Of a stretch of DNA of 64,000 nucleotides, positions 41,771 through 64,000 are shown piece by piece. Position 1 is the first letter of the stretch. Each line of letters opens with the position of its first letter. The notes beneath the pieces were generated by a model. The model was not told the DNA's origin and searched no databases. It was given only the letters and a program-made list of their open reading frames with translations. The DNA comes from a virus (lineage: Duplodnaviria; Caudoviricetes), in the IMG/VR virus record IMGVR_UViG_3300029288_000175, positions 222 through 64,221 of that record. One strand, written 5' to 3'. Both the position numbers and the translations under genes were made by a program.

Positions 41771-41968
41771 CTACCCCGTCTTCCCGAACGGAGCGAACAC
41801 GTATGGCTTGCCGTCAGCGCTCTTTGCCTCATCATTACGTGCCTTGCGGTGATCGTCCTGCCCCTGGCAAATAGCGTCGGGGATGCCGTTAGGATAGGCT
41901 CGACATTTCGGGTAGTTGAGCAACTGGATGCAGCCGAAGCAAGGCGTTTCTACGACCGTGCCACTCAC
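41771..41968 (-). CDS. small Cys-rich protein of the type that follows MuF cargo genes
   Basis: C..C......C.A(Y/F)P.GIP..I..G..DH motif. Confidence 0.7.
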   Translation of the reverse strand: MSGTVVETPCFGCIQLLNYPKCRAYPNGIPDAICQGQDDHRKARNDEAKSADGKPYVFAPFGKTG

Positions 41969-42957
41969 TGGTCACCTCCGCCAAACATGGCGCGCTCGAA
42001 GGCGCGAGAAATCCGCGCGTCCACTTCGCCGCGCCCGCTCACCAGGATGGTGAACACCTCAGCCTCCCACTCCTGCGAGTTGTCGCGTGCTCGTGCTGTG
42101 GGTGCGGCACCCTGATAGGCTGGCCTCAGACTGCCCGACCCAAATTCATCACGCAATGCACGCGTGAAGGGGCCGTCCGAGGAGTCCGCCTGTTGGCCGT
42201 ACTTGAAACCCCACTGGTGACCCATCTCGTGCAGCGTCGTCGCCTCGTACAGGTCCTCGAAACGGTACAGACTGTGTTCCTGCGCCGTAGCGCTGGTGTA
42301 GTCGTCGTGCACGGCCATGGCTCTGGCCCGCTCAGCATACTGCAACGACTCGGCGGCCAACGTATCGGCGGCCTTGATGTAGGCCCTCTGCTCTGACTCC
42401 GAGCCCTCACCCTGCCTGAACCGCATGTGGGCCACCATCGTGGCGGCTTCCTCCGCCTTGGCCTCCACTTCAGCAATGCGCTCGTCCCACGGCGTCTGAG
42501 CCCCTATGAACACCGCCCCGTCCTGACGATTGGCTCCACCGTTGTTCTTCACGTTGCCGAACCTGATGGAGGTGACGTTATCCAGCCCGTACTCGGAGAT
42601 GACATACTTAGCCGTTCCCAACGCCCGCTCTGCGTCATCGACGGTGCCGCCATCCAACTTGAACTCATCGCCGATATCAACTTGCACAGGGCCAGCGCCG
42701 AGGTCACGCGTGCACGTGTCACACGACCTCTCGGCGTCCCGATGGAACAGGTCCGCCCGCTCGGTGCCACCGGTACTGCCACCCGCGTCGCTGAACCGCC
42801 CAGCCTCATCGCGCGGGTGCAAGTCAGGGTCCCAGTCCGCCTCGGCATACCCTGCCGAGGCTGTAAACACACCACTTTTAGGTTCCAGCGCTATCAGCTC
42901 ATTTAGCCACTCAGCTCTCTTGTCCATAGTACCTCTGAGCGAACTCGTGAGCGCCAT
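41965..42957 (-). CDS. HPR-repeat protein with zincin-like metallopeptidase domain
   Basis: WDPDLHPRDEAGRF repeat; TLHEMGHQWG (HExxH) and downstream EWEAE. Confidence 0.7.
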   Translation of the reverse strand: MALTSSLRGTMDKRAEWLNELIALEPKSGVFTASAGYAEADWDPDLHPRDEAGRFSDAGGSTGGTERADLFHRDAERSCDTCTRDLGAGPVQVDIGDEFKLDGGTVDDAERALGTAKYVISEYGLDNVTSIRFGNVKNNGGANRQDGAVFIGAQTPWDERIAEVEAKAEEAATMVAHMRFRQGEGSESEQRAYIKAADTLAAESLQYAERARAMAVHDDYTSATAQEHSLYRFEDLYEATTLHEMGHQWGFKYGQQADSSDGPFTRALRDEFGSGSLRPAYQGAAPTARARDNSQEWEAEVFTILVSGRGEVDARISRAFERAMFGGGDQ

Positions 42958-45900
42958 CGGCCGTGAACATGTAATCGTTCATCCAGGACTGCTCGTACAC
43001 TCGCGTCATGCCCAACTTCTCGTAGAATCCCACGGCATCCGGGTCAGCGTCTAGCGTAACCCCTCGGCCTTCAGCTCCTGCTATGCGGCATATGTAGGCC
43101 ATCATCGCTGTGCCCTGGCCCGGTTGACTGCGTGTGCTGGCGAGCGCTCGCACTTCCAGGTCGTTGCCCTTGATGCGCACGGAAGCCATGGCCTCCAGTT
43201 GGCCACTGTTACCAGGCTGCCGTAACCCGTATGCCTGGTACTTGTCTGGGTCGTTGCGGGTATCCCCCATGATCAGCCACGCTATCTGGGAAGCCATGCC
43301 ACTTTCGCCAAACCCCCCCAGTTCAGCAGCAGACACACGGTCTAGACGCGCCACCTCCAGGCCAGTACCGATATCAGTCCCCAGCACACGGTGCCCTTGG
43401 CCCTTGATCGGTTTCGACGTATCATCTACACCCGGTCCGCCTCCAGCATCGCTAAACCGCCCCGCCTCATCGCGCGGGTGTAGGTCGGGATCCCAACCAT
43501 CTTCCGTCAGTATCCCAAGTTCCTTGGCCGTATCAGCATAGGCATCGGAGTATGCAATCGTCACCGCAATGCCGCGCGCCTGTAGCGTCTTCGCTAGGGC
43601 CTCGGTCTTCTGTACGTAGTACTGCCTGTCGTCCTCGTACTCCCCGTAGCCTCCTTCCATGACCATGGCCACGCCGGTGATCGCGTTTGGTGTCAGACTG
43701 AGTCCTGTATAGCGCACCTCGCGCTCCCACTGCTCGTTACTGGCCATGGGATACTGCACCGCTTCCCAGTCACCGTTGAGTTGGCCCCGATCAAATGCCA
43801 ACACCGCCACACCGCTATCCCCGCCGAACGTGCTGGCGACGCGAGGCGATATCGTCAGACCTACCGTTGACTCTAACTGCCCACGAGTGCGTTCACCTGT
43901 GACCCAACCAGCCCCGTATAGCCGTCCGTCCTGGTCTATCTGACTCAGCACCTGCGGGAGGTCCCGCAACCCTACACCACGATACAGGGTATCAGCATCC
44001 GCTGCGGCCGTGTTGAACGTTGCCTGCCACCGCTCATGCTCCTCTGGCGAACGTGCGGCGTCACCCTCTGGCACCCCCCGCGGGTAACCAGGGAGGCCAG
44101 GTTCAGGGCACGCCGCCTGTCGGGAGGATGTGCGCGTGATCGCCTGCTTGGTGGCGCCAGCGCGCATCCCTTGGCCACCGGTACCACCACCCGCATCCGT
44201 GAACCTACCCGCCTCGTCGCGCGGCTGGTCGTCCGAGTACTCGGCATACCCCGCGTCCGCCATCTCGTCACCGGGGCCACCACGGTGCCCGATCCACCCA
44301 TCCGCCTGGTTCGCCGGCACTTCCCTACGACGCAGTTCGCAGCGGCAATTGCCACCACAGCTACATTCCTCAGTCGGCAGTGGCAGGTCACCGGAATGTT
44401 GCCAGCCACGAGCGTGGTAGCCCAGGCAATTGTGCACAACAAACCCGTTGGCGATATAATGATGAGCGTCCGCCACTTCGAGATTGTATACAGGAGTTGC
44501 CTCGCCATGGCTTGTGTACGTTGCGGAGTCAACTGCAAGACCTTGTTCTGTAGGCATTGCGGTAAGGCCCATGATCTTTGTGCGTGTGGCGCCGTCAAGT
44601 TGCGCAAAGTCACTCTGTGTCCTGCATGCCGGCCTAAACAGGCTAAACCAACATGCGAACAATGCGGCCGTCCTGTCTACAACAAACATTCCCGGCTCTG
44701 TCGCACATGTTATGGTTACCGTAATTGGACAGAGGTTGAGGACATGTTTCTGCGGCACGAATATGCGGCACATGGCGCCGCGTACTGCGCTGATCATCTT
44801 GACCGTTCGGTCGAGAAGGTGCGAAGCCGTGCCTCGCGCCTTCGCATTGCCGTTGTTCCTGACACTTATGACCGTCTTGTCCACGGTGGCGCTTCCCGCG
44901 CTAACAAGGGACGCAAGTTCTCTGCCGAGACGCGACAGGCGATGCGCGAACGGGCATTGCTTCGACGTGACGAATATGCTGGTTACCTTCTGAAGGGTCG
45001 CCTCGTATGCCAAGTTCAACGCCGCAGCAAGGCCGAACAACGGCTGTGCGACATGCTCGACACGATGACTGTCCCCTACGTTTCCCAGTGCGTCGTCAAC
45101 CAGAAGTTTATCTGCGACGTTGTCGTAGGCAACCTGGTCATTGAGGTTGACGGTGACTACTGGCATGGGCACCCGCGTTTCGAGCCGCTCGACGCGCGTC
45201 AACTTGCACAACACAAACGTGACGCCAGCAAGACGGCCTACTTGACCGCGTGCGGATACGTCGTCGAGCGCATCTGGGAGAGCGACCTGACCGTGGAACG
45301 AGTCCGCAGTGTCCTTACTCAGCACAACTTGCTGGCCGGTGGCGAGTAGATGTGCTGGCCACCATTCACCACTTGGCAAGAGGAACGGGTGGTTACCTGT
45401 GCAGGTGACCGCAAAAGAATCGCTCTCAACGCGCCATAACTCAGTTTCCAATCGGTGCATAGTGTCTATCACGGGCCTAGGCCCCATCGTCGTTATGGCC
45501 ATATCCCCGACACGCACATCTTGAATTGGCGCCCACCTTTTCGTCAGCCGAATTAGCGTATCGGCAGGGAAACACTCGGGGCAGTGCTTGTACGGTTCTC
45601 CCAGGTCGCGGATTTCGATGGTGACGTTCCCCTCAGCCGCTGCGGGGAGACGCGCACGCTCCACCTGGTAGTACTCCGCTCGCGCTTCACCCACGTACAT
45701 GTCCATGCGCGCCTGGGCCTGGGCACTGGATGCCTCTCCCTTGGTCATGTCGGCGCCCAACTGCCGTAGGTGGGTGAACTGGTCCGCCAGGCGCGTGGTG
45801 ATGCCCGCACGGTCGGCGTCGGTGAGGCGATCCCAGCCGCCGGCGGCGAGGGCGGCGTTCTGCACGTACTCGCGCTGTAGCATCGAGGATGCGCGGGCGA

Positions 45901-46111
45901 ACCACGTGTTCTCGCTGATGCGCCCATCCAGCATCGCCTGCACGCCGGCACGGAGGCGCCCCTCACGTTCGGTGGTGCTGCGCTCCAACAGGTCCATGAT
46001 TCTGGTGCGCGCCACGAAGCGCCCGGTCTCGTCCGAACGGTACCGACTGGCGCTGGCATCCCACTCGTAGCCCTGGAGAACGTAGGGGCCGGCCTCGACG
46101 AGAACGTTCAT
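42911..46111 (-). CDS. MuF-like head morphogenesis protein containing an intein, with C-terminal ART-like and GNAT domains
   Basis: Y+RS.ETGRFV, GG...T..D, HCPE/C...PLP..EC.C..NCRC; intein; LYRG..LTISPRVA..F..EREV; GQGTAMM..AVGFYEKLGM. Confidence 0.85.
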   Translation of the reverse strand: MNVLVEAGPYVLQGYEWDASASRYRSDETGRFVARTRIMDLLERSTTEREGRLRAGVQAMLDGRISENTWFARASSMLQREYVQNAALAAGGWDRLTDADRAGITTRLADQFTHLRQLGADMTKGEASSAQAQARMDMYVGEARAEYYQVERARLPAAAEGNVTIEIRDLGEPYKHCPECFPADTLIRLTKRWAPIQDVRVGDMAITTMGPRPVIDTMHRLETELWRVESDSFAVTCTGNHPFLLPSGEWWPAHLLATGQQVVLSKDTADSFHGQVALPDALDDVSARGQVGRLAGVTFVLCKLTRVERLETRVPMPVVTVNLNDQVAYDNVADKLLVDDALGNVGDSHRVEHVAQPLFGLAAALNLAYEATLQKVTSIFVTSKQCPFAHRLSRLGRELASLVSAGSATVDKTVISVRNNGNAKARGTASHLLDRTVKMISAVRGAMCRIFVPQKHVLNLCPITVTITCATEPGMFVVDRTAALFACWFSLFRPACRTQSDFAQLDGATRTKIMGLTAMPTEQGLAVDSATYTSHGEATPVYNLEVADAHHYIANGFVVHNCLGYHARGWQHSGDLPLPTEECSCGGNCRCELRRREVPANQADGWIGHRGGPGDEMADAGYAEYSDDQPRDEAGRFTDAGGGTGGQGMRAGATKQAITRTSSRQAACPEPGLPGYPRGVPEGDAARSPEEHERWQATFNTAAADADTLYRGVGLRDLPQVLSQIDQDGRLYGAGWVTGERTRGQLESTVGLTISPRVASTFGGDSGVAVLAFDRGQLNGDWEAVQYPMASNEQWEREVRYTGLSLTPNAITGVAMVMEGGYGEYEDDRQYYVQKTEALAKTLQARGIAVTIAYSDAYADTAKELGILTEDGWDPDLHPRDEAGRFSDAGGGPGVDDTSKPIKGQGHRVLGTDIGTGLEVARLDRVSAAELGGFGESGMASQIAWLIMGDTRNDPDKYQAYGLRQPGNSGQLEAMASVRIKGNDLEVRALASTRSQPGQGTAMMAYICRIAGAEGRGVTLDADPDAVGFYEKLGMTRVYEQSWMNDYMFTADGAHEFAQRYYGQES
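44432..44496 (+). promoter_or_regulatory. putative promoter and RBS of the antisense endonuclease
   Basis: GTGCAC-17bp-TATAAT (44455-44460); AGGAG 44492-44496; ATG 44507. Confidence 0.6.
44507..45349 (+). CDS. Zn-finger/NUMOD3/DUF559(Vsr-like) putative homing endonuclease, antisense within the intein
   Basis: Multiple CxxC, WTEVED.FL helical repeat, NKGRKFSAETRQAMRE, CDVVVGNLVIEVDGDYWHG..RDASK..YL..CGY.V.RIWE. Confidence 0.88.
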   Translation: MACVRCGVNCKTLFCRHCGKAHDLCACGAVKLRKVTLCPACRPKQAKPTCEQCGRPVYNKHSRLCRTCYGYRNWTEVEDMFLRHEYAAHGAAYCADHLDRSVEKVRSRASRLRIAVVPDTYDRLVHGGASRANKGRKFSAETRQAMRERALLRRDEYAGYLLKGRLVCQVQRRSKAEQRLCDMLDTMTVPYVSQCVVNQKFICDVVVGNLVIEVDGDYWHGHPRFEPLDARQLAQHKRDASKTAYLTACGYVVERIWESDLTVERVRSVLTQHNLLAGGE

Positions 46112-46607: not shown

Positions 46608-49538
46608 TCACCCCCTCATCAGCACGCGCGAGGCGGCTGCCAGCATGGCCGACAACTCCTCTGGACTCAGGTGACCTAACTCTGCCAGGCCAACCCGCGC
46701 CTCTTCCACCGACCGCGCAGGTGGCTCCTTGTCGGCGTCTGGCTCCTGCGGTGGCACCTCATCAGTTTGTGCAGACGCCTGCCTTTCCTCGCCATCCTGG
46801 CCCGGTGCCTCGCCCTTGGCGATCTGCTGCGCCAGCCGTCTGTTCTCCTCGGCCTGCTGCTTCGCGGCGTCCAGCGCCTGCACCACCATGTCAGCACTGA
46901 TCACGTCCTCTACGTCCTGCACCCCCACCGCCTGGAGCGACGCCTGCACGATGGAGGCGATGATCGGCGGGATGGACGCGTCGGGCAGCATGGCAGCCTG
47001 CATCAGCGGCAACACGACCTGCGCCGTCACGTTGACGATGTTCTGCACCTGCGCCGCCGTGTCCGTCTCAAGCAACTTGTCAAGGTTGACCGTCACGTTC
47101 TTGGCGTCTATGCGGTCTTTCCCGTACCTGTTCGCCATGTCAAACACGATCCGGGCCACGTCACGCCACACCGAGGCCCAGAACGACTGGTACGCGCCGA
47201 ATGACAGCTGGATCGGACGCTCCATCGCCGTGGCAGTGTTGCCGGCGATCAGCGGGGCCCCATGGCGCCGCGTGACGAACATGCCGTCTGGTGGGACCTC
47301 AAAGCACCACACCAGGCCGCGATATTCCTCGACGGTCACGTTGATGTGCCGCCGCAGATGCAAACGTTCGCGTCGGTTGCGGTACAACCGCCAACCATCG
47401 CGTTGCATCCACCGGCTGGCTGCATCTCCGTGATGTGGCCCGGCCGATCGTATCTGCGTCAGTTTGCCCCACTCGCCATGATGCAGCATGAGACGTTGCA
47501 CGTCGTCCAACAGCAGGCGAGAGGTGCTGTCAAACCCGCCAACCTGTGTCACGGGGTGGCCGTCCATGCGCTCATGCCCATCACCCGCCATGTACGCGTC
47601 CAACAGTAGCGTTGCCTGTTCATGGGGCAGTGCGAACACGAACGCCGGCAGGCGCCGATTCCACTGGTAGTGGCCTACGTTATCACGCAACCACGCATGC
47701 AAACTGGCATCGCTGCACCGCCATCGCCAGTACGCGCCCTTCATCGGTTTGCGACTAAATGCGAATGGGAGGCGCTCCAGACACGCATCTATGGCCGCGA
47801 CTTCGGCGGTCGCATTCATGCGCTGGCAGAGACTCACCACATGGCGATCCTCCAGGCTGCCCTCAGCGATCCACCAACCCAAAAACGTCAACCAGGCGTC
47901 AGCATCCAGTGGCCGTTCCACGGGCTCGTTGCCCAGGTAGAACTGTTCCAGTCGCTCATGGGACGTGATGCGTGCCATTGACGGTAAACCGAACGCTACC
48001 GGGAGGGCATCAGCACGCACGACGGTAAACGGTCGCACGTGTTGCCGATTCTCGTGTGTCTCGTCGCTGACAAGCATCCGATGGTTGGGCGTCACCAGGG
48101 CGTCGACCTGCGCACCACACAACCGCACCATCGGTCCCGCATACGCGTATACGTGTAGTGCAGACGGTTCGCGGTATGTCAGAACCCCATCACCTGCCGA
48201 GTAACTCGCTATGCGCTGCCCCGGCACCCACTGATGCCATGCACACCAACCATCCTCGGTCAACACCTCGGTCTGGTTGTCATAACACGCGAGTCGATAT
48301 GCATCACCGATGCCTGCGTAGTGCGGGAAGATACGCGCGCTGAGGAGCGCGTACCACGCCAGCGACTCCCCGTCCGCCTTGGCGTCAGAGGCGCCGGTGT
48401 CGAGGTTGAGCTGCCGCAGGCTCTGCGCCTCGTTGCCGAGGTACGTTGACCCCGACACCGGCGGTGGGTTCTGCTCCCAGTCGCCGGTGCTGCCGGCACG
48501 TTGGAGCGTCGAGGCGATCTGTGCCTGCACCGCGTCCACACCACGAGAGCCCGACTTCGTCTTCAGTTCGTTCACGAACATGGACCGGGCCTCAGCGACG
48601 TTGGCCCGGTTGACGCGGAACTGCTCGTGCTCCTTCACCCAGCCGTGGCCGGTGGTCATCAGTGGCCAACCGCGGCCATTCTCGTCCGCCTTGTGCGCCA
48701 CGCACACGACGCAGACGAACGTCATCGACGACGCCTCGTCTGCCCTGATAGCGCCCTGTGGCAACAGGTCACGCGCCTCGATCTTCTTCCCATCGAGATC
48801 CCACCCCAGCCAGTTGGGATCGTTGCCCCTGGTATTGCCGAGCGGCGCCTCACCACCGGCGCGCGGACCGCCGCTCAGGAACGCCAGGTAGTCCGGGTAG
48901 TAGGCATCGTGGAGCTGGCCGTACGGGTGGCCAGGGTCAACCTCGGACCACTGGCGATGCCACCAGACTGTCGTGGTCGCGTCACCCGGCGCCATGATCC
49001 GGTCGACAAACTCCAGACTGTTCAGCGACCGGATGGTGCATTTGCCGGTCGCCTTGGACGCGTACATGGCGAGGAACCGCTCCCCGTCGTGCAGCACGTT
49101 GTTGCTGAGGTCCTGTAGGTAGCGGGCACCCAACACCATGGCGTTCCGGTCAGCCGCCCAGAACTCATTCCAGACCTCGGCCGCCGTCTCGTCGTCTGCC
49201 ACCACGTCGACGTTCTGGCCGTGGCCATACGCGGTCCACAGCCACATGGCATACTCGGCAAGGGGGCTGGATCGTACCAGGTAGCGCGACTCGAAAACGG
49301 CACGGCGCCGGTCTGCCTCGTTAGGCTCGCCGACGCCGAGTTGTAGGTACCCCACCTCGCGGATCAGGTTGGTCAACGTGTGGGAGTCCAGCTCCATCAG
49401 GTCACGCGCGAGGTCTCGCGGCTGGTACGAGTAGGGGCCGCGTACGTATCCCTCGCGCATGATGACGAACGCCTCGCGTATCGCCTGCACCTCCGGTCCC
49501 AGGAGGAACCCGGCCAGGCGTTGCCGTATGCTAGGCAT
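46608..49538 (-). CDS. portal protein containing an intein
   Basis: Follows terminase block; DGE.FL, AH+...RG.PL portal motifs; GAGGAG RBS. Confidence 0.85.
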   Translation of the reverse strand: MPSIRQRLAGFLLGPEVQAIREAFVIMREGYVRGPYSYQPRDLARDLMELDSHTLTNLIREVGYLQLGVGEPNEADRRRAVFESRYLVRSSPLAEYAMWLWTAYGHGQNVDVVADDETAAEVWNEFWAADRNAMVLGARYLQDLSNNVLHDGERFLAMYASKATGKCTIRSLNSLEFVDRIMAPGDATTTVWWHRQWSEVDPGHPYGQLHDAYYPDYLAFLSGGPRAGGEAPLGNTRGNDPNWLGWDLDGKKIEARDLLPQGAIRADEASSMTFVCVVCVAHKADENGRGWPLMTTGHGWVKEHEQFRVNRANVAEARSMFVNELKTKSGSRGVDAVQAQIASTLQRAGSTGDWEQNPPPVSGSTYLGNEAQSLRQLNLDTGASDAKADGESLAWYALLSARIFPHYAGIGDAYRLACYDNQTEVLTEDGWCAWHQWVPGQRIASYSAGDGVLTYREPSALHVYAYAGPMVRLCGAQVDALVTPNHRMLVSDETHENRQHVRPFTVVRADALPVAFGLPSMARITSHERLEQFYLGNEPVERPLDADAWLTFLGWWIAEGSLEDRHVVSLCQRMNATAEVAAIDACLERLPFAFSRKPMKGAYWRWRCSDASLHAWLRDNVGHYQWNRRLPAFVFALPHEQATLLLDAYMAGDGHERMDGHPVTQVGGFDSTSRLLLDDVQRLMLHHGEWGKLTQIRSAGPHHGDAASRWMQRDGWRLYRNRRERLHLRRHINVTVEEYRGLVWCFEVPPDGMFVTRRHGAPLIAGNTATAMERPIQLSFGAYQSFWASVWRDVARIVFDMANRYGKDRIDAKNVTVNLDKLLETDTAAQVQNIVNVTAQVVLPLMQAAMLPDASIPPIIASIVQASLQAVGVQDVEDVISADMVVQALDAAKQQAEENRRLAQQIAKGEAPGQDGEERQASAQTDEVPPQEPDADKEPPARSVEEARVGLAELGHLSPEELSAMLAAASRVLMRG
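47238..48287 (-). mobile_element. intein (350 aa) with in-frame LAGLIDADG endonuclease
   Basis: CYDNQTEVLT, TPNHRM, FLGWWIAEGS, LLDAYMAGDG, VWCFEVPPDGMFVTRRHGAPLIAGN, +1 Thr. Confidence 0.92.
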
Positions 49539-49882
49539 CTGCCCCACTCCTCAACTAGCACCTCCCCCGTCGCTACCATCATACACTCAGGCAAGGACGC
49601 AACGCGAACGCGGGGCAGGGTTCACCCCTTGCATGAGGCGGCGCAAGACGAACGGCGGAGCTGCCAGGTCCGGTACTGGAGGGACTACAAGCCACCAATT
49701 GCGCGGCGCCACCGCGTCGCTCTCAACGATCCTGATCGTCATGCCACACACGGTGATGTGGCGCTCACGGATTGCATTTCGCTCGTTCGCGCTGGCAGGA
49801 TCGAGGTTGATCACAGCAACCCTCCTAGAACTGCACCGGCTGGCACCGCGCCAGGCCGGTATGCCGAACAGTCCGGACGACG

Positions 49883-60534: not shown

Positions 60535-60761
60535 CCGCAGAGCAGGTACGTGAGAAGCGCGCTGAGGCGCAGGGAGAGGTGGTACGGTACGCGGCAATCC
60601 GCGCCGATGCCATGAGACGCTGGAGCGAGGCACTGCAACGCCTAGACCACGACCAGATGCGTACAGCGAACCGTGAGATCGAGGACGCCGGGCGCACGAT
60701 GATGGCGTGGCGGTGGACCAGCGACGCTTTCACAGTGGTACTGGACGGGGAGCCGGAGTGA
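60528..60761 (+). CDS. hypothetical helical protein
   Basis: GGAGG RBS; stop abuts helicase ATG. Confidence 0.65.
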   Translation: MLTAEQVREKRAEAQGEVVRYAAIRADAMRRWSEALQRLDHDQMRTANREIEDAGRTMMAWRWTSDAFTVVLDGEPE

Positions 60762-63700
60762 TGGGCGCTGAATCACGGTTGCTGCTGAGTCGGGCGCTCC
60801 GTCACCTGGCGAGCCGGTGTGACGGGGCGGTCTCGCACGACGATCAGGGATTCGCCGCCCCCGATGTGAGCGACGGCCACCGCTTGGCGCGTGCCGACCA
60901 CGAGTCGTGGACGCTCGCAGAGGCCCAGCGGGCCTGGGAGATTGTCCGGCGCTACTCCGGCCAGCTCGCAGAGGTGGGCATCTCCCCGGCAACGATCCCA
61001 GCCCCGATACCGGAGACGCAGCAGGTCGCCGCCCCAGCCGCCACCAACGGCCACGCCCGCAGGGCCACCCGCGTGGTGACCGTCGAGCAGGGGGTGGTGG
61101 TGATCGCGTTCCCCTACGACGCCGACCTCGTGGCGGCCGTGAAGAGCATCCCCGGCCGGCGGTTCGATTCGGGCCACAAGCACTGGACGGCACCCCTGTC
61201 GTCGCTGGCGGCGGTGCGCGCGTTTGCCGAGAAGCACAGGTTCGTCGTGACCGAGTCGGCCGCGAACGCCCCGGTCACCGAGGCAGCGGCCGCGCCGGCC
61301 CCGCCTAGCAGGACCGTGCGGCTGGACGGCGACCGCCTGGTGGTGCGGTTCGACTATGACGCCGACCTGGTGGCACAGGTGCGGGAGTTGGCCGGCGCCC
61401 GTTGGGACAAGACCGGGCGCCACTGGAGCGTTCCCGTGTCTAGCGCGAGCGTGGCCGCGCTGCGGCGGCTCGGCTTCGTGCCCACGGACCCGAAGGCCCT
61501 CGACGCGGCCGTGGACGGCCTCGCGCGCAACGAGGAGGCCAGCCGCGCTGCCACGTCCACCCTGGAGGTCCCCGGCCTCGGCGGCACGCTGCGGCCGTTC
61601 CAGGCGGCCGGGGTGGCGTACGCTATGAAGCAACGACGATTGTTCATAGCTGATGAGATGGGAACCGGGAAAACTGTGCAGGCGCTGGCAACCGTCCAGG
61701 CCACCAACGCATACCCCGCCCTGGTCGTCTGCCCCGCCTCGCTCAAGCTCAACTGGCAGCGTGAGGCGCGCAAGTGGCTACCCGGCCGGTCGGTCGCCGT
61801 CCTGAACGGGACGATGGACCTGACCGCCGACGTGTGCATCATCAACTACGACGTGCTGGCGCGGCGGTTGGACGCACTGAAGGCGGTCCGCTGGCAGGCG
61901 GTGGTCCTGGACGAGTCACACTACATCAAGAGCGCCAAGGCTCAGCGAACGAAGGCGGCGCAGGAACTGTGCCAGGCGGCACCGCTCCGGCTCCTACTCT
62001 CCGGCACGCCGCTGCTGAACCGGCCCGTCGAGCTGGTGACGCAGTTGCAGGCGCTGGGGCGCCTGGACGAGTTCGGCGGCTCCTGGAAGTTCATCAGCCG
62101 CTACTGTGGGGCCACGCGGACGAAGTACGGCGTTGACATGAGCGGCGCCACCAACCTGGACGAGCTGCACACCCTGCTGCGCCAGCGGTGCCTTCGGGGC
62201 GAAGTTGTGGTAGAATGCGAACATGGACCACTAACTATTGCGGAGATTGTTGAAAGCGAGTTGCCGGTTTCCGTATGGTCGGTGGCAAAGGATGGATGCA
62301 TTGAACTCAGACGAACGGTTGGTTACAGCAAGCGCCATCATCAAGGCGCGTTGGTGCGAGTACGAACAGAGGATGGAAGGTCGTTTGATTGCACCCCCGA
62401 TCATCGGGTTTGGACATCGTGTGGCTACAAACGGGCCGCCGCCCTTACTGGTAGCGATTACGTGTTGGTACTGTGGCAAACGAGTTGTCCGCCGGTGGCA
62501 CGGATTGCAAACCGCCCTAAAGTACTGCTCTCAGAAGTGCGCGGGCAAAGCGGCGGCACAGGACCATGTAAGGGGCCAGCGTATGATGGAAACCAGAGCA
62601 CGCAATCGTGGCCCGGATGTTACGAAGACATGCGAGTGGTGTGGCAAGACGTTCACCGGGCGCAATGTGAAGCAACTGCGGCAACGACGCTTTTGCAGTC
62701 TGTCCTGCTCAAATGCGTGGAAACAAACACTGCCGCATGCACAGAAGACGTTAGCAGCGATGTGGGCGGCACCCAGTCACAAAGGCAAGCGATACCCGGC
62801 AATCAGCGCGGCGTTGAAAGGACGCCGCCGCAGTCAGGAATCAATAGAAAAGGGGCGCGTTACCGCACGAGCAAGGCATCGGCTTCCGGGCCGCAGCGAT
62901 CGCATATCACCCTGTGCACGAAAACTATGCGCGGCGCTAGGGTGGCAGGAACAGTGGTTAGAGTACATGTTGGAGATCAAAAAGCCCCAAGGCAAGTTCA
63001 TAACCGGGGTTCGGAACTTCCTGTATCTAGACTTAGCAAACCCGCAATACAAGTTAGCGGTAGAAGTAGACGGTACTACTCATCGTCTTCTCAGGCAACA
63101 GCAACTAGATGCATGGAAGACGAGAGTACTTCTGTCGTTAGGGTGGCGAGTATTGAGGTACTCCAATCAGCAGGTGACGGACGAGTTGACGGCAGTAGTT
63201 GTGGAGGTGCAGTCGTTTATGACATCGAGGTAGAAGGGAACCACAACTTCTTTGCCAACGGAGTGCTTGTTTCTAACTGCTACGTGCGCCGCACGAAGGC
63301 GCAGGTCCTCGCTGAACTGCCGGCGAAGCAGCGCGTGGCGGTTCCTCTCGAACTCAGCAACGAGGCTGAGTACCGCCGGGCAGAGCGCGACGTGGCCGGC
63401 TACCTGCGTGACCGGGCCGCGGAGCACGCCCGCGAGGATGCCGTGCGCGACGGCGCGGACCTGTTCGCGGCTGAGGCTCGCGCCCGCGCCGCCGGGAACC
63501 GCGCGAGCAGCGCGGCGGAGACGGCGCAGCAGTTGGTGCGGATCGAGGCCCTGAAACGCCTGGCGGCCGAGGGGAAACTGAGGGCAGCGATCGGGTGGGC
63601 GCAGGACTTCCTCGACGCGGCCGAGGGCGAGAAACTCGTGCTGTTCGCCCACCACGTTGACGTACAGCAGCGCCTGTACGACGCGTTCCCCGGCGCGGCG

Positions 63701-64000
63701 CGCCTGATGGCTGAGGACTCAGTGCAGGAGCGCCAGGCCAACGTGGATCGGTTCCAGACCGACCCGGCCTGCCGGCTGATCGTGTGCAGCCTGACCGCTG
63801 GTGGCGTGGGCATCACACTCACCGCCGCCAGTAACGTGGCGTTCCTGGAACTCGCTTGGACACCTGCATCAATGAGCCAGGCAGAGGATCGCGTGCATCG
63901 CATCGGCCAGCGCGACGCCGTGACGGCGTGGTACCTGCTGGCCGCCGGCACGATTGACGAGGACATCGAGGCGCTACTGGAGGCGAAACGTGCCGTGATG
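60761..64000 (+). CDS. HARP/SMARCAL1-like SNF2 helicase containing an intein (truncated by window end; absent from ORF track)
   Basis: Hand translation: two HARP domains (FPYDADLV..VK.IPGRRFD), LRPFQ..GV, ADEMGTGKT, DESH, SGTP, AGGVGITL, QAEDRVHRIGQ. Confidence 0.9.
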   Translation, partial: MGAESRLLLSRALRHLASRCDGAVSHDDQGFAAPDVSDGHRLARADHESWTLAEAQRAWEIVRRYSGQLAEVGISPATIPAPIPETQQVAAPAATNGHARRATRVVTVEQGVVVIAFPYDADLVAAVKSIPGRRFDSGHKHWTAPLSSLAAVRAFAEKHRFVVTESAANAPVTEAAAAPAPPSRTVRLDGDRLVVRFDYDADLVAQVRELAGARWDKTGRHWSVPVSSASVAALRRLGFVPTDPKALDAAVDGLARNEEASRAATSTLEVPGLGGTLRPFQAAGVAYAMKQRRLFIADEMGTGKTVQALATVQATNAYPALVVCPASLKLNWQREARKWLPGRSVAVLNGTMDLTADVCIINYDVLARRLDALKAVRWQAVVLDESHYIKSAKAQRTKAAQELCQAAPLRLLLSGTPLLNRPVELVTQLQALGRLDEFGGSWKFISRYCGATRTKYGVDMSGATNLDELHTLLRQRCLRGEVVVECEHGPLTIAEIVESELPVSVWSVAKDGCIELRRTVGYSKRHHQGALVRVRTEDGRSFDCTPDHRVWTSCGYKRAAALTGSDYVLVLWQTSCPPVARIANRPKVLLSEVRGQSGGTGPCKGPAYDGNQSTQSWPGCYEDMRVVWQDVHRAQCEATAATTLLQSVLLKCVETNTAACTEDVSSDVGGTQSQRQAIPGNQRGVERTPPQSGINRKGARYRTSKASASGPQRSHITLCTKTMRGARVAGTVVRVHVGDQKAPRQVHNRGSELPVSRLSKPAIQVSGRSRRYYSSSSQATATRCMEDESTSVVRVASIEVLQSAGDGRVDGSSCGGAVVYDIEVEGNHNFFANGVLVSNCYVRRTKAQVLAELPAKQRVAVPLELSNEAEYRRAERDVAGYLRDRAAEHAREDAVRDGADLFAAEARARAAGNRASSAAETAQQLVRIEALKRLAAEGKLRAAIGWAQDFLDAAEGEKLVLFAHHVDVQQRLYDAFPGAARLMAEDSVQERQANVDRFQTDPACRLIVCSLTAGGVGITLTAASNVAFLELAWTPASMSQAEDRVHRIGQRDAVTAWYLLAAGTIDEDIEALLEAKRAVM
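62189..63277 (+). mobile_element. intein (363 aa) in the helicase, no in-frame endonuclease
   Basis: LRQR/CLRGEVVV, block B TPDHRV, VYDIEVEGNHNFFANGVLVSN/CYVRRTK; frame open throughout on hand translation. Confidence 0.9.
62238..63233 (+). CDS. Zn-finger/NUMOD3/DUF559 putative homing endonuclease in the +1 frame inside the intein (start uncertain: 62292, 62373 or 62421)
   Basis: CWYCGK..KYCSQKC, CEWCGKTF..RFCSLSC, KGRRRSQESIEK, LDLA...KLAVEVDG..H....D..K...L..LGWRVLRY.N. Confidence 0.88.
   Translation: MRRLLKASCRFPYGRWQRMDALNSDERLVTASAIIKARWCEYEQRMEGRLIAPPIIGFGHRVATNGPPPLLVAITCWYCGKRVVRRWHGLQTALKYCSQKCAGKAAAQDHVRGQRMMETRARNRGPDVTKTCEWCGKTFTGRNVKQLRQRRFCSLSCSNAWKQTLPHAQKTLAAMWAAPSHKGKRYPAISAALKGRRRSQESIEKGRVTARARHRLPGRSDRISPCARKLCAALGWQEQWLEYMLEIKKPQGKFITGVRNFLYLDLANPQYKLAVEVDGTTHRLLRQQQLDAWKTRVLLSLGWRVLRYSNQQVTDELTAVVVEVQSFMTSR

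Follow-up and report, generated by a model that had tools for sequence, protein, structure and literature searches.

The window analysed here, a stretch of 64,000 nt covering positions 222 to 64,221 of the IMG/VR record IMGVR_UViG_3300029288_000175, is nearly the whole of a single-contig phage genome of 64,221 bp (65.9% GC) from a landfill metagenome. The phage is uncultured, and no close relative of it was found among the deposited phages searched. On the minus strand, at 42911..46111, lies a gene for a MuF-like minor capsid or head-morphogenesis protein, which is interrupted by a class-1 intein; within this intein, on the opposite strand, lies a second gene that encodes a putative homing endonuclease. 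The open reading frame (ORF) of the MuF-like gene specifies a precursor of 1066 amino acids (aa), predicted to be reduced to about 684 aa once spliced. It matches PHROG 24776 (E 2e-32) and is collinear with P0066, an intein-free protein of 722 aa that was its only other homolog in a collection of 5.8 billion proteins. A Phage_Mu_F match was not obtained from Pfam, and we call the host protein MuF-like on the basis of PHROG 24776, the homology to P0066, and an H-CxxC...CxC motif that is common to MuF-like genes at related loci. Its C-terminal cargo includes a GNAT-like region (weak Pfam GNAT match at aa 997-1041).

Read on the minus strand, the ORF runs ...EPYKHCPE/CFPADTLIRL...TGNHPF...VYNLEVADAHHYIANGFVVHN/CLGYHARGWQ. 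Residues 1-179 of P0066 align to residues 1-179 of the precursor, and from residue 180 of P0066 the alignment resumes at residue 562 of the precursor (...RHCPE/CLAYHSRGWQ); the virtually spliced window DNA is collinear with the intein-free P0066 allele. Because P0066 aligns on both sides, the intein can be placed at exactly aa 180-561 of the precursor, which corresponds to 45574..44429 of the window. The N-extein (aa 1-179; 45575..46111, minus strand) ends in KHCPE and has 73% identity to residues 1-179 of P0066. The C-extein (42911..44428, minus strand) starts with CLGYHARGWQ...NCRC..., aligns to P0066 from residue 180, and is followed by the cargo domains. According to the ORF reading and the P0066 alignment, its +1 Cys codon (44426..44428, minus strand) encodes the latter of the two Cys residues in the H-C-x-x-C zinc motif of MuF.

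The intein (382 aa; 44429..45574, minus strand) has the anatomy of class 1, with Cys1, TGNH in block B, and VYNLEV..HHYIANGFVVHN in blocks F and G. C1, T59-x-x-H62, and H381-N382 are invariant in an alignment of nine inteins (that of the window and eight related ones), and a +1 Cys follows. In the AlphaFold2 (AF2) model, the N-terminal splicing half (aa 1-88, blocks A and B; 45311..45574, minus strand) is beta-rich, with a pLDDT (the predicted score in the local distance difference test) of 85-92, and has HINT matches. The C-terminal half (aa 342-382, blocks F and G with the terminal His-Asn; 44429..44551, minus strand) has a pLDDT of 83-92 and the conserved pattern VYNL.V...Y.ANG.VVHN. A Foldseek search with these confident parts (aa 1-88 plus 342-382) retrieved the gp41-1, MchDnaB-1, Msm DnaB, and Mtu RecA mini-inteins with E values of 2e-5 to 5e-4. 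Between the two halves, at the usual place of the endonuclease domain, lies a "shadow" segment (aa 89-341; 44552..45310, minus strand), which is the antisense read-through of the endonuclease gene. This segment is free of stop codons, matches no Pfam or PHROG family, and has a pLDDT below 50 throughout. When the intein was compared with phages by tblastn, only weak N-terminal matches to inteins of Erwinia jumbo phages appeared, and the deposited phages had no megablast match to 44300-45700. An Rfam scan of 44200-45800 found no RNA family and thus no group I or group II intron signal. The intein/endonuclease segment has a GC content of 54-57% in a genome of 66% GC, which is consistent with its acquisition from a lower-GC source.

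The endonuclease gene (280 aa; 44507..45349, plus strand) is situated entirely within the intein, and its codons are the same triplets as those of the intein frame, read from the other strand. It has 64 homologs, most of them full length, the best with 51% identity at 99% coverage (E 2e-85). The protein retains all 23 columns that are invariant in an alignment of 29 sequences, including the motifs IE(A/V)DGDYWHGHPRF and GY.V.RIWESD, and its start agrees with the MSCIRCG start region of P0001. Its AF2 model has a mean pLDDT of 86.7, and in Foldseek it matched the catalytic domain of I-Bth0305I (3R3P; E 6.8e-5, template modelling score 0.73 on the target) and Escherichia coli Vsr (1CW0, 2.5e-4; 1VSR, 1.6e-3). 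A profile search of PDB sequences gave weak matches only (3HRL, 3e-5; Vsr, 0.07; 3R3P, 0.17), and endonuclease genes of mycobacteriophages, among them Fishburne and Donovan, were found by tblastn at 40% identity (E 9e-11). Given the homologs, the invariant columns, the confident model, and the I-Bth0305I/Vsr fold matches, we conclude, as judged from the sequence and the predicted structure, that this ORF is a real gene.

Three regions can be distinguished in the protein. The N-terminal zinc-ribbon region (aa 3-67; 44513..44707, plus strand) contains CxxC pairs with the conserved residues C15, C18, C38, C41, C50, and C53, matches Pfam DZR_2 below threshold (E 2.4e-4), and presumably binds DNA. 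The helical middle region (aa 75-171; 44729..45019, plus strand), which has helices at 76-171 with a pLDDT of 80-98 and a match to PHROG 323 (E 3.6e-5), is presumed to be a DNA-binding linker. The third region (aa 175-272; 45029..45322, plus strand; IEVDGDYWHGHPRF...RD...GY.V.RIWESD) is a Vsr/EDxHD-type PD-(D/E)XK nuclease domain according to Foldseek, the 3HRL profile match, and tblastn. It carries the family-invariant residues D204, D215, H220, H222, and D239, which are candidate catalytic-motif residues on the basis of their conservation. A preliminary description of this DNA, made from the letters alone, had already placed an intein between KHCPE and CLGY in the MuF CxxC motif, noted that its middle was open yet devoid of recognizable motifs, and seen in the 280-aa ORF zinc fingers, a NUMOD3-like segment, and a DUF559/Vsr-like nuclease. 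The boundaries proved exact and the view of the middle was borne out; the zinc ribbons and the Vsr/DUF559-type nuclease also stand, but the NUMOD3 label has no support from HMMs, as Pfam PF07460 gave no match on the endonuclease even at E<=10 and GRKFSAETRQAM, located in the helical middle region, bears a motif-level resemblance only.

The endonuclease ORF contains no TTA, CTA, or TCA codon, and the other two antisense frames contain 12 and 10 stops. A model based on the ORF's own composition predicts 4.7 antisense-stop codons, the probability of none being 0.006. The same nested and codon-aligned layout is found in L001 (Logan assembly), L005, L006-8, L009, L010, L011 (IMG/VR), and L084 (a metagenome-assembled genome, MAG), and also in L112 and L120, whose endonucleases are more distant. 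The nested relatives range from 34 to 68% GC and are all located within MuF-like genes, and their codon-aligned antisense frames are open for 394 codons (where the contig ends) to 1708 codons. On either side of the endonuclease, their intein frame shows C(F/V/L)xxxT..., block B (TxxH; in a few, T/ExDH), and VYNLxV...ANGxVVHN/C. The eight close nested relatives each have no antisense stop, compared with 5.5-9.9 expected from the composition model (per-gene probabilities of none, 2e-3 to 6e-6). Among the free-standing relatives, L002 and L003, for which expectations were modelled, carry 24 and 16 antisense stops, compared with 22.7 and 14.9 expected; the others, apart from two exceptions treated below, carry 11-19. 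For the sequences compared, we regard this contrast as decisive evidence that the openness of the shadow frame goes beyond chance.

Selection on the two frames was compared over the same aligned codons with per-codon-position differences and frame-wise identity; these measures were preferred to formal nonsynonymous/synonymous rate ratios because the relatives are at most 51% identical and their synonymous sites are saturated. Differences among the homologs peak at position 3 of the endonuclease frame (0.61-0.75) and are smaller at its first and second positions (0.38-0.60 and 0.33-0.54, respectively). Its third position coincides with position 1 of the intein frame, which is therefore the most variable one. 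The mean amino acid identity among relatives is 35% in the endonuclease frame versus 21% in the shadow frame. The codon-position pattern and the difference in identity show that protein-level selection acts on the plus-strand gene, with the intein frame merely kept stop-free; the GC content at third codon positions did not separate the frames (0.62 versus 0.64). The shadow reading evolves, by these measures, like an unselected frame, and the model gives it no confident fold. The suggestions of the preliminary description that the two frames are exactly codon aligned, that the intein frame is kept open by avoidance of three codons, and that selection would be found in the antisense frame rather than in the intein frame are thus upheld, the first two also in the eight close nested relatives.

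All seven free-standing relatives with readable flanks (L002, L003, L004, and L127-L130) are convergent with a MuF-like gene and overlap its 3' end. These MuF-like genes have CxxC...CxC near the C terminus in 7/7 cases, preceded by His in five of them. Free-standing and nested endonucleases have the same orientation relative to MuF, and in the maximum-likelihood tree the two kinds are interleaved, so that well-supported branches force at least two changes of state. All other nested relatives have their insertion ahead of the first Cys of H-C-x-x-C, whereas the insertion in the window lies three codons further on, ahead of the second Cys (HCPE^C). Both L120 (Streptomyces alboflavus NZ_JNXT01000054.1, 427..5550, minus strand) and L112 (a Dehalococcoidales MAG) are cellular records and probable prophages, in which inteins interrupt a portal-MuF fusion and MuF genes at the CxxC site (QNT^CTPC and DDRV^CTLC); these inteins hold more distant Vsr-like endonucleases in antisense.

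Candidate expression signals precede the endonuclease gene. A promoter-like sequence, TGCACA-16-TATAAT (44433..44460, plus strand), matches the consensus at 10 of 12 positions and overlaps the codons of intein blocks F and G, its TATAAT being the antisense image of the H-Y-I codons there; the consensus scan returned 2 sites compared with 0.6 expected. TATAAT-type boxes also occur upstream of the endonuclease start in L005, L006, L009, and L011. In the window, a candidate Shine-Dalgarno-like AGGAG (44492..44496, plus strand) lies 10 nt ahead of the ATG at 44507.

Contigs from three other runs (X2 to X4), which belong to two further studies (landfill and groundwater, 2022), cover the stretch in part. 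In these runs, pieces of the intein and endonuclease differ from the window by 0-1 nt per 250-576 nt. The N-extein pieces in X3 differ at 13 of 251 and 25 of 241 nt (5-10%), and one such contig spans the N-terminal junction; the C-terminal junction is spanned only in X1, the probable source run. Single-nucleotide differences within the element were seen in X3 at 44615 and 45440, each in a single low-depth contig. In contigs from X2 and X3, two independent landfill runs, 45579 is connected to 44308 by exactly 124 letters that do not align, and an intein-less allele predicts 4 + 120 nt. In these putative intein-less contigs, the 124 nt (44309..44428 and 45575..45579) are more than 15% diverged, while the sequence further out aligns; the divergence could reflect the target site or the boundary of co-conversion. 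The population pattern is consistent with a recently moving element with presence/absence polymorphism.

We suggest that the locus probably holds a composite selfish element, in which a class-1 intein occupies the codons of the MuF zinc motif (HCPE^C) and its homing endonuclease is a separate, codon-aligned gene on the opposite strand. Translation of the MuF precursor would run across the endonuclease gene in antisense, yielding a shadow peptide of about 250 unstructured residues, and the HINT halves would then excise the whole 382-aa insert and restore HCPEC-LGY. The endonuclease, with its zinc ribbons, helical DNA-binding region, and Vsr/EDxHD-type nuclease, would be expressed with a plus-strand promoter and a ribosome-binding site of its own. 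During co-infection it would cleave MuF alleles that lack the intein, in or close to the H-C-x-x-C codons, and repair from the intein-bearing genome would copy the intein and the endonuclease gene together; as the insertion splits the proposed target site, the carrier itself would be immune. The origin put forward in the preliminary description, namely the entry of a free-standing endonuclease gene into an intein in reverse orientation, gains support from the free-standing relatives beside MuF, their identical orientation relative to it, and the selection on the plus-strand protein. This MuF-associated endonuclease family exists in free-standing or nested form and has switched state more than once.

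Several observations weigh against this interpretation. The Pfam Intein_splicing match (E 1.8e-5, 25.1 bits) does not reach the gathering score of 35.8, and block F carries Asn (VYNLEV), in contrast to the Asp of many class-1 inteins. On the endonuclease, the Pfam matches to DZR_2, MTES_1575, and DUF559 all fall slightly under threshold, DUF559 scoring 19.3 bits against a cutoff of 20.6. Without the relatives, an open shadow frame in the window is only modestly improbable, and about 13% of 280-codon windows in the other likely genes of the phage also lack TTA, CTA, and TCA. Stop avoidance is not perfectly diagnostic, because the free-standing gene of L004 (2917..3837) has no antisense stop, with about 6 expected, and that of L128 (3501..4373) has one; these two genes may have left an intein recently or may be pre-adapted. 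The phasing of the intein pieces with the diverged extein pieces is uncertain because the contigs are short and have a depth of 2-4x. MuF proteins, moreover, are not known to be strictly essential in every phage, which makes the argument that the intein must splice weaker than it would be for a terminase.

The alternatives differ in what they make of the antisense gene. It might be a stranded, inactive passenger in a mini-intein that is inherited vertically with a long junk linker, the frame being open only for the translation of MuF. An open shadow frame would indeed be needed for MuF with or without a working nuclease, and several VSR-type cases look vertically inherited (Gosselin et al., bioRxiv 10.1101/2025.01.02.630785). 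However, an antisense ORF is not protected by selection on the host gene and, if useless, would be expected to decay quickly, whereas this ORF is intact with 23/23 invariant family residues and shows protein-level constraint in all pairs compared. Moreover, in three studies the element is near-identical while the extein pieces beside it diverge by 5-10%, and an allele of intein-less size occurs alongside; we therefore consider a stranded passenger unlikely. The nuclease might instead be active without homing of the intein, serving like a free-standing enzyme in competition with, or marker exclusion of, co-infecting relatives, with the intein as a safe harbour. Free-standing members of the family do adjoin MuF without any intein, and phage nuclease genes at exchange boundaries have reportedly been described (PMC10448857). 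Yet cutting near its own locus and being copied by repair would be homing in practice, and nesting at H-C-x-x-C in at least eight lineages (in the window, three codons later) fits a target at this motif, so that we hold such a role to be distinctly improbable.

It is very unlikely that the locus is truly dual coding, with the shadow peptide selected as a functional domain such as a linker with a structural role or an endonuclease-like domain of a new kind. The frame is open in every nested relative and a few short shadow motifs recur, for example MPVV.V.L.N, but the recurring motifs mirror the most conserved motif of the nuclease. The low pLDDT over aa 89-341 and the lack of family matches do not suggest a domain either, and the high variability of intein-frame codon position 1 is the opposite of what coding selection produces. 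Hardly credible at all is an artefact, in the form of a chance antisense ORF or a chimeric assembly. Long antisense ORFs are common in high-GC genes, as the 13% quoted above illustrates, and the genome is a metagenome assembly; but the 64 homologs and the confident nuclease fold speak against chance, the layout recurs at 34-55% GC, and contigs from independent studies cover the interior of the element and its N-terminal junction, which counters the worry, raised from the start, that the assembly might be chimeric.

A broader scenario can be offered, tentatively and with the balance slightly on the side of doubt. The zinc-ribbon/Vsr endonucleases might be a MuF-specific homing lineage that shuttles repeatedly between a free-standing, convergent site downstream of MuF and, a few dozen codons from it, an antisense nest inside a MuF intein, with the orientation kept and TTA, CTA, and TCA purged at each nesting. 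If this were true, the relatives would be snapshots of an endonuclease-less intein gaining its endonuclease, combining "splicing first" with collaborative homing, and the three-codon shift to the second Cys in the window would be a re-targeting inside one zinc motif.

Within 41965..44400, the MuF-like protein has extra domains downstream of its zinc motif, and the next gene encodes an HExxH-type protein (HEMGH); linkers of the type WDPDLHPRDEAGRFSDAGGG are repeated in both this gene and the MuF-like gene. Two more inteins were noticed in the window. A SNF2-type helicase gene (60707..64000, plus strand) contains an intein at about 62189..63277 (CLRGEVVV...TPDH...VLVSN/C) with a featureless in-frame middle. 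This intein holds a same-strand, out-of-frame ORF (62238..63233, plus strand) that has FCS-type zinc fingers and matches Pfam DUF559 above threshold (41.8 bits), and which is only distantly related to the endonuclease of the MuF intein (pairwise E 0.007). The third intein is located in a 979-aa portal gene (46608..49547, minus strand) and is of the usual in-frame LAGLIDADG type (C...LTFLGWWIAEGSL...), with a weak match to Pfam LAGLIDADG_3; the only matches of the portal N terminus were distant portals of Arthrobacter and Brevibacterium phages (about 30% identity). One phage of 64 kb thus carries three inteins with three endonuclease layouts.

Inteins with antisense endonucleases are rare, and they bear on whether splicing domains and endonucleases were joined by invasion ("splicing first"). 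The relatives collected here extend the layout beyond cultured actinobacteriophages to uncultured phages and prophages of 34-68% GC. They also put numbers on the way in which synonymous stop avoidance alone keeps an intein frame open, with protein-level selection on the antisense gene. The same family stands free beside MuF and is interleaved with nested members on the tree, which offers a concrete and testable route of endonuclease acquisition. For annotation, it matters that gene callers give the host gene or the endonuclease but seldom both, and that a novel intein domain may wrongly be read into the shadow segment.

The preliminary description knew of no antisense case, and this has to be corrected. 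Gosselin, Arsenault & Gogarten (bioRxiv 10.1101/2025.01.02.630785) reported anti-sense VSR-like endonucleases in full inteins. All 16 of their "VSR -1 ORF" inteins interrupt actinobacteriophage proteins that are MuF-like or putative minor capsid proteins, for example in the Gordonia phages Angelicage, Vivi2, and Apunk, Mycobacterium phage Sejanus, and Rhodococcus phage REQ3. The same structural matches (1CW0 and 3R3P), an in-frame middle that cannot be folded, and the same proposed origin were described for them, and we confirmed the layout in the sequences of Sejanus and Angelicage. Like these inteins, that of the window is contiguous, has a separate antisense endonuclease ORF in the -1 frame between its splicing blocks, and resides in a MuF-like host. 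The VSR -1 ORF endonucleases, however, combine helix-turn-helix repeats with the Vsr-like core, whereas the endonuclease of the window has zinc ribbons. A tblastn search from its ORF and from the intein found no match to the VSR -1 ORF phages, and a pairwise comparison with the Angelicage endonuclease gave E 0.001 over 44 aa only. The exteins of the window are unrelated to Sejanus gp8, as is the intein apart from block G, and the insertion site is HCPE^C, compared with the downstream N^CRC in Angelicage. On present sequence comparisons, the architecture is shared with the VSR -1 ORF inteins and the lineage is independent.

Antisense endonucleases of the LAGLIDADG type have been known in inteins for longer, in Synechocystis DnaX and a Chloroflexus SpoVR-like protein (Gorbalenya 1998 and Gogarten et al. 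2002, as cited by Gosselin et al.), and antisense LAGLIDADG cases in minor capsid genes also occur in Gordonia DE1 phages. These share with the window the opposite-strand endonuclease ORF and an intein frame open across it, but the enzyme of the window is a Vsr-like PD-(D/E)XK nuclease and not a LAGLIDADG protein. The I-Bth0305I/EDxHD family (3R3P; Taylor et al. 2011) and the split inteins of "fractured genes" (Dassa et al. 2009), both as cited by Gosselin et al., are comparable in that a Vsr-type nuclease serves mobile introns and inteins and has related free-standing copies, 3R3P being also our best structural match. In those systems, the endonuclease gene either stands free between the halves of a split intein or lies in a group I intron, whereas the intein of the window stays contiguous because its antisense frame is stop-free. 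In the psbA intron and F-CphI of cyanophages, a free-standing endonuclease and an endonuclease-less intron reportedly cooperate in collaborative homing (Bonocora & Shub; Zeng et al. 2009). The MuF-adjacent relatives similarly place a free-standing endonuclease beside a conserved gene, and in the psbA case, which unlike ours is an intron system, the endonuclease is said to target the insertion site. The architecture of the window's element is therefore already known, and what may be new is its distribution among uncultured phages, the statistics of stop avoidance, and the link between free-standing and nested endonucleases beside MuF.

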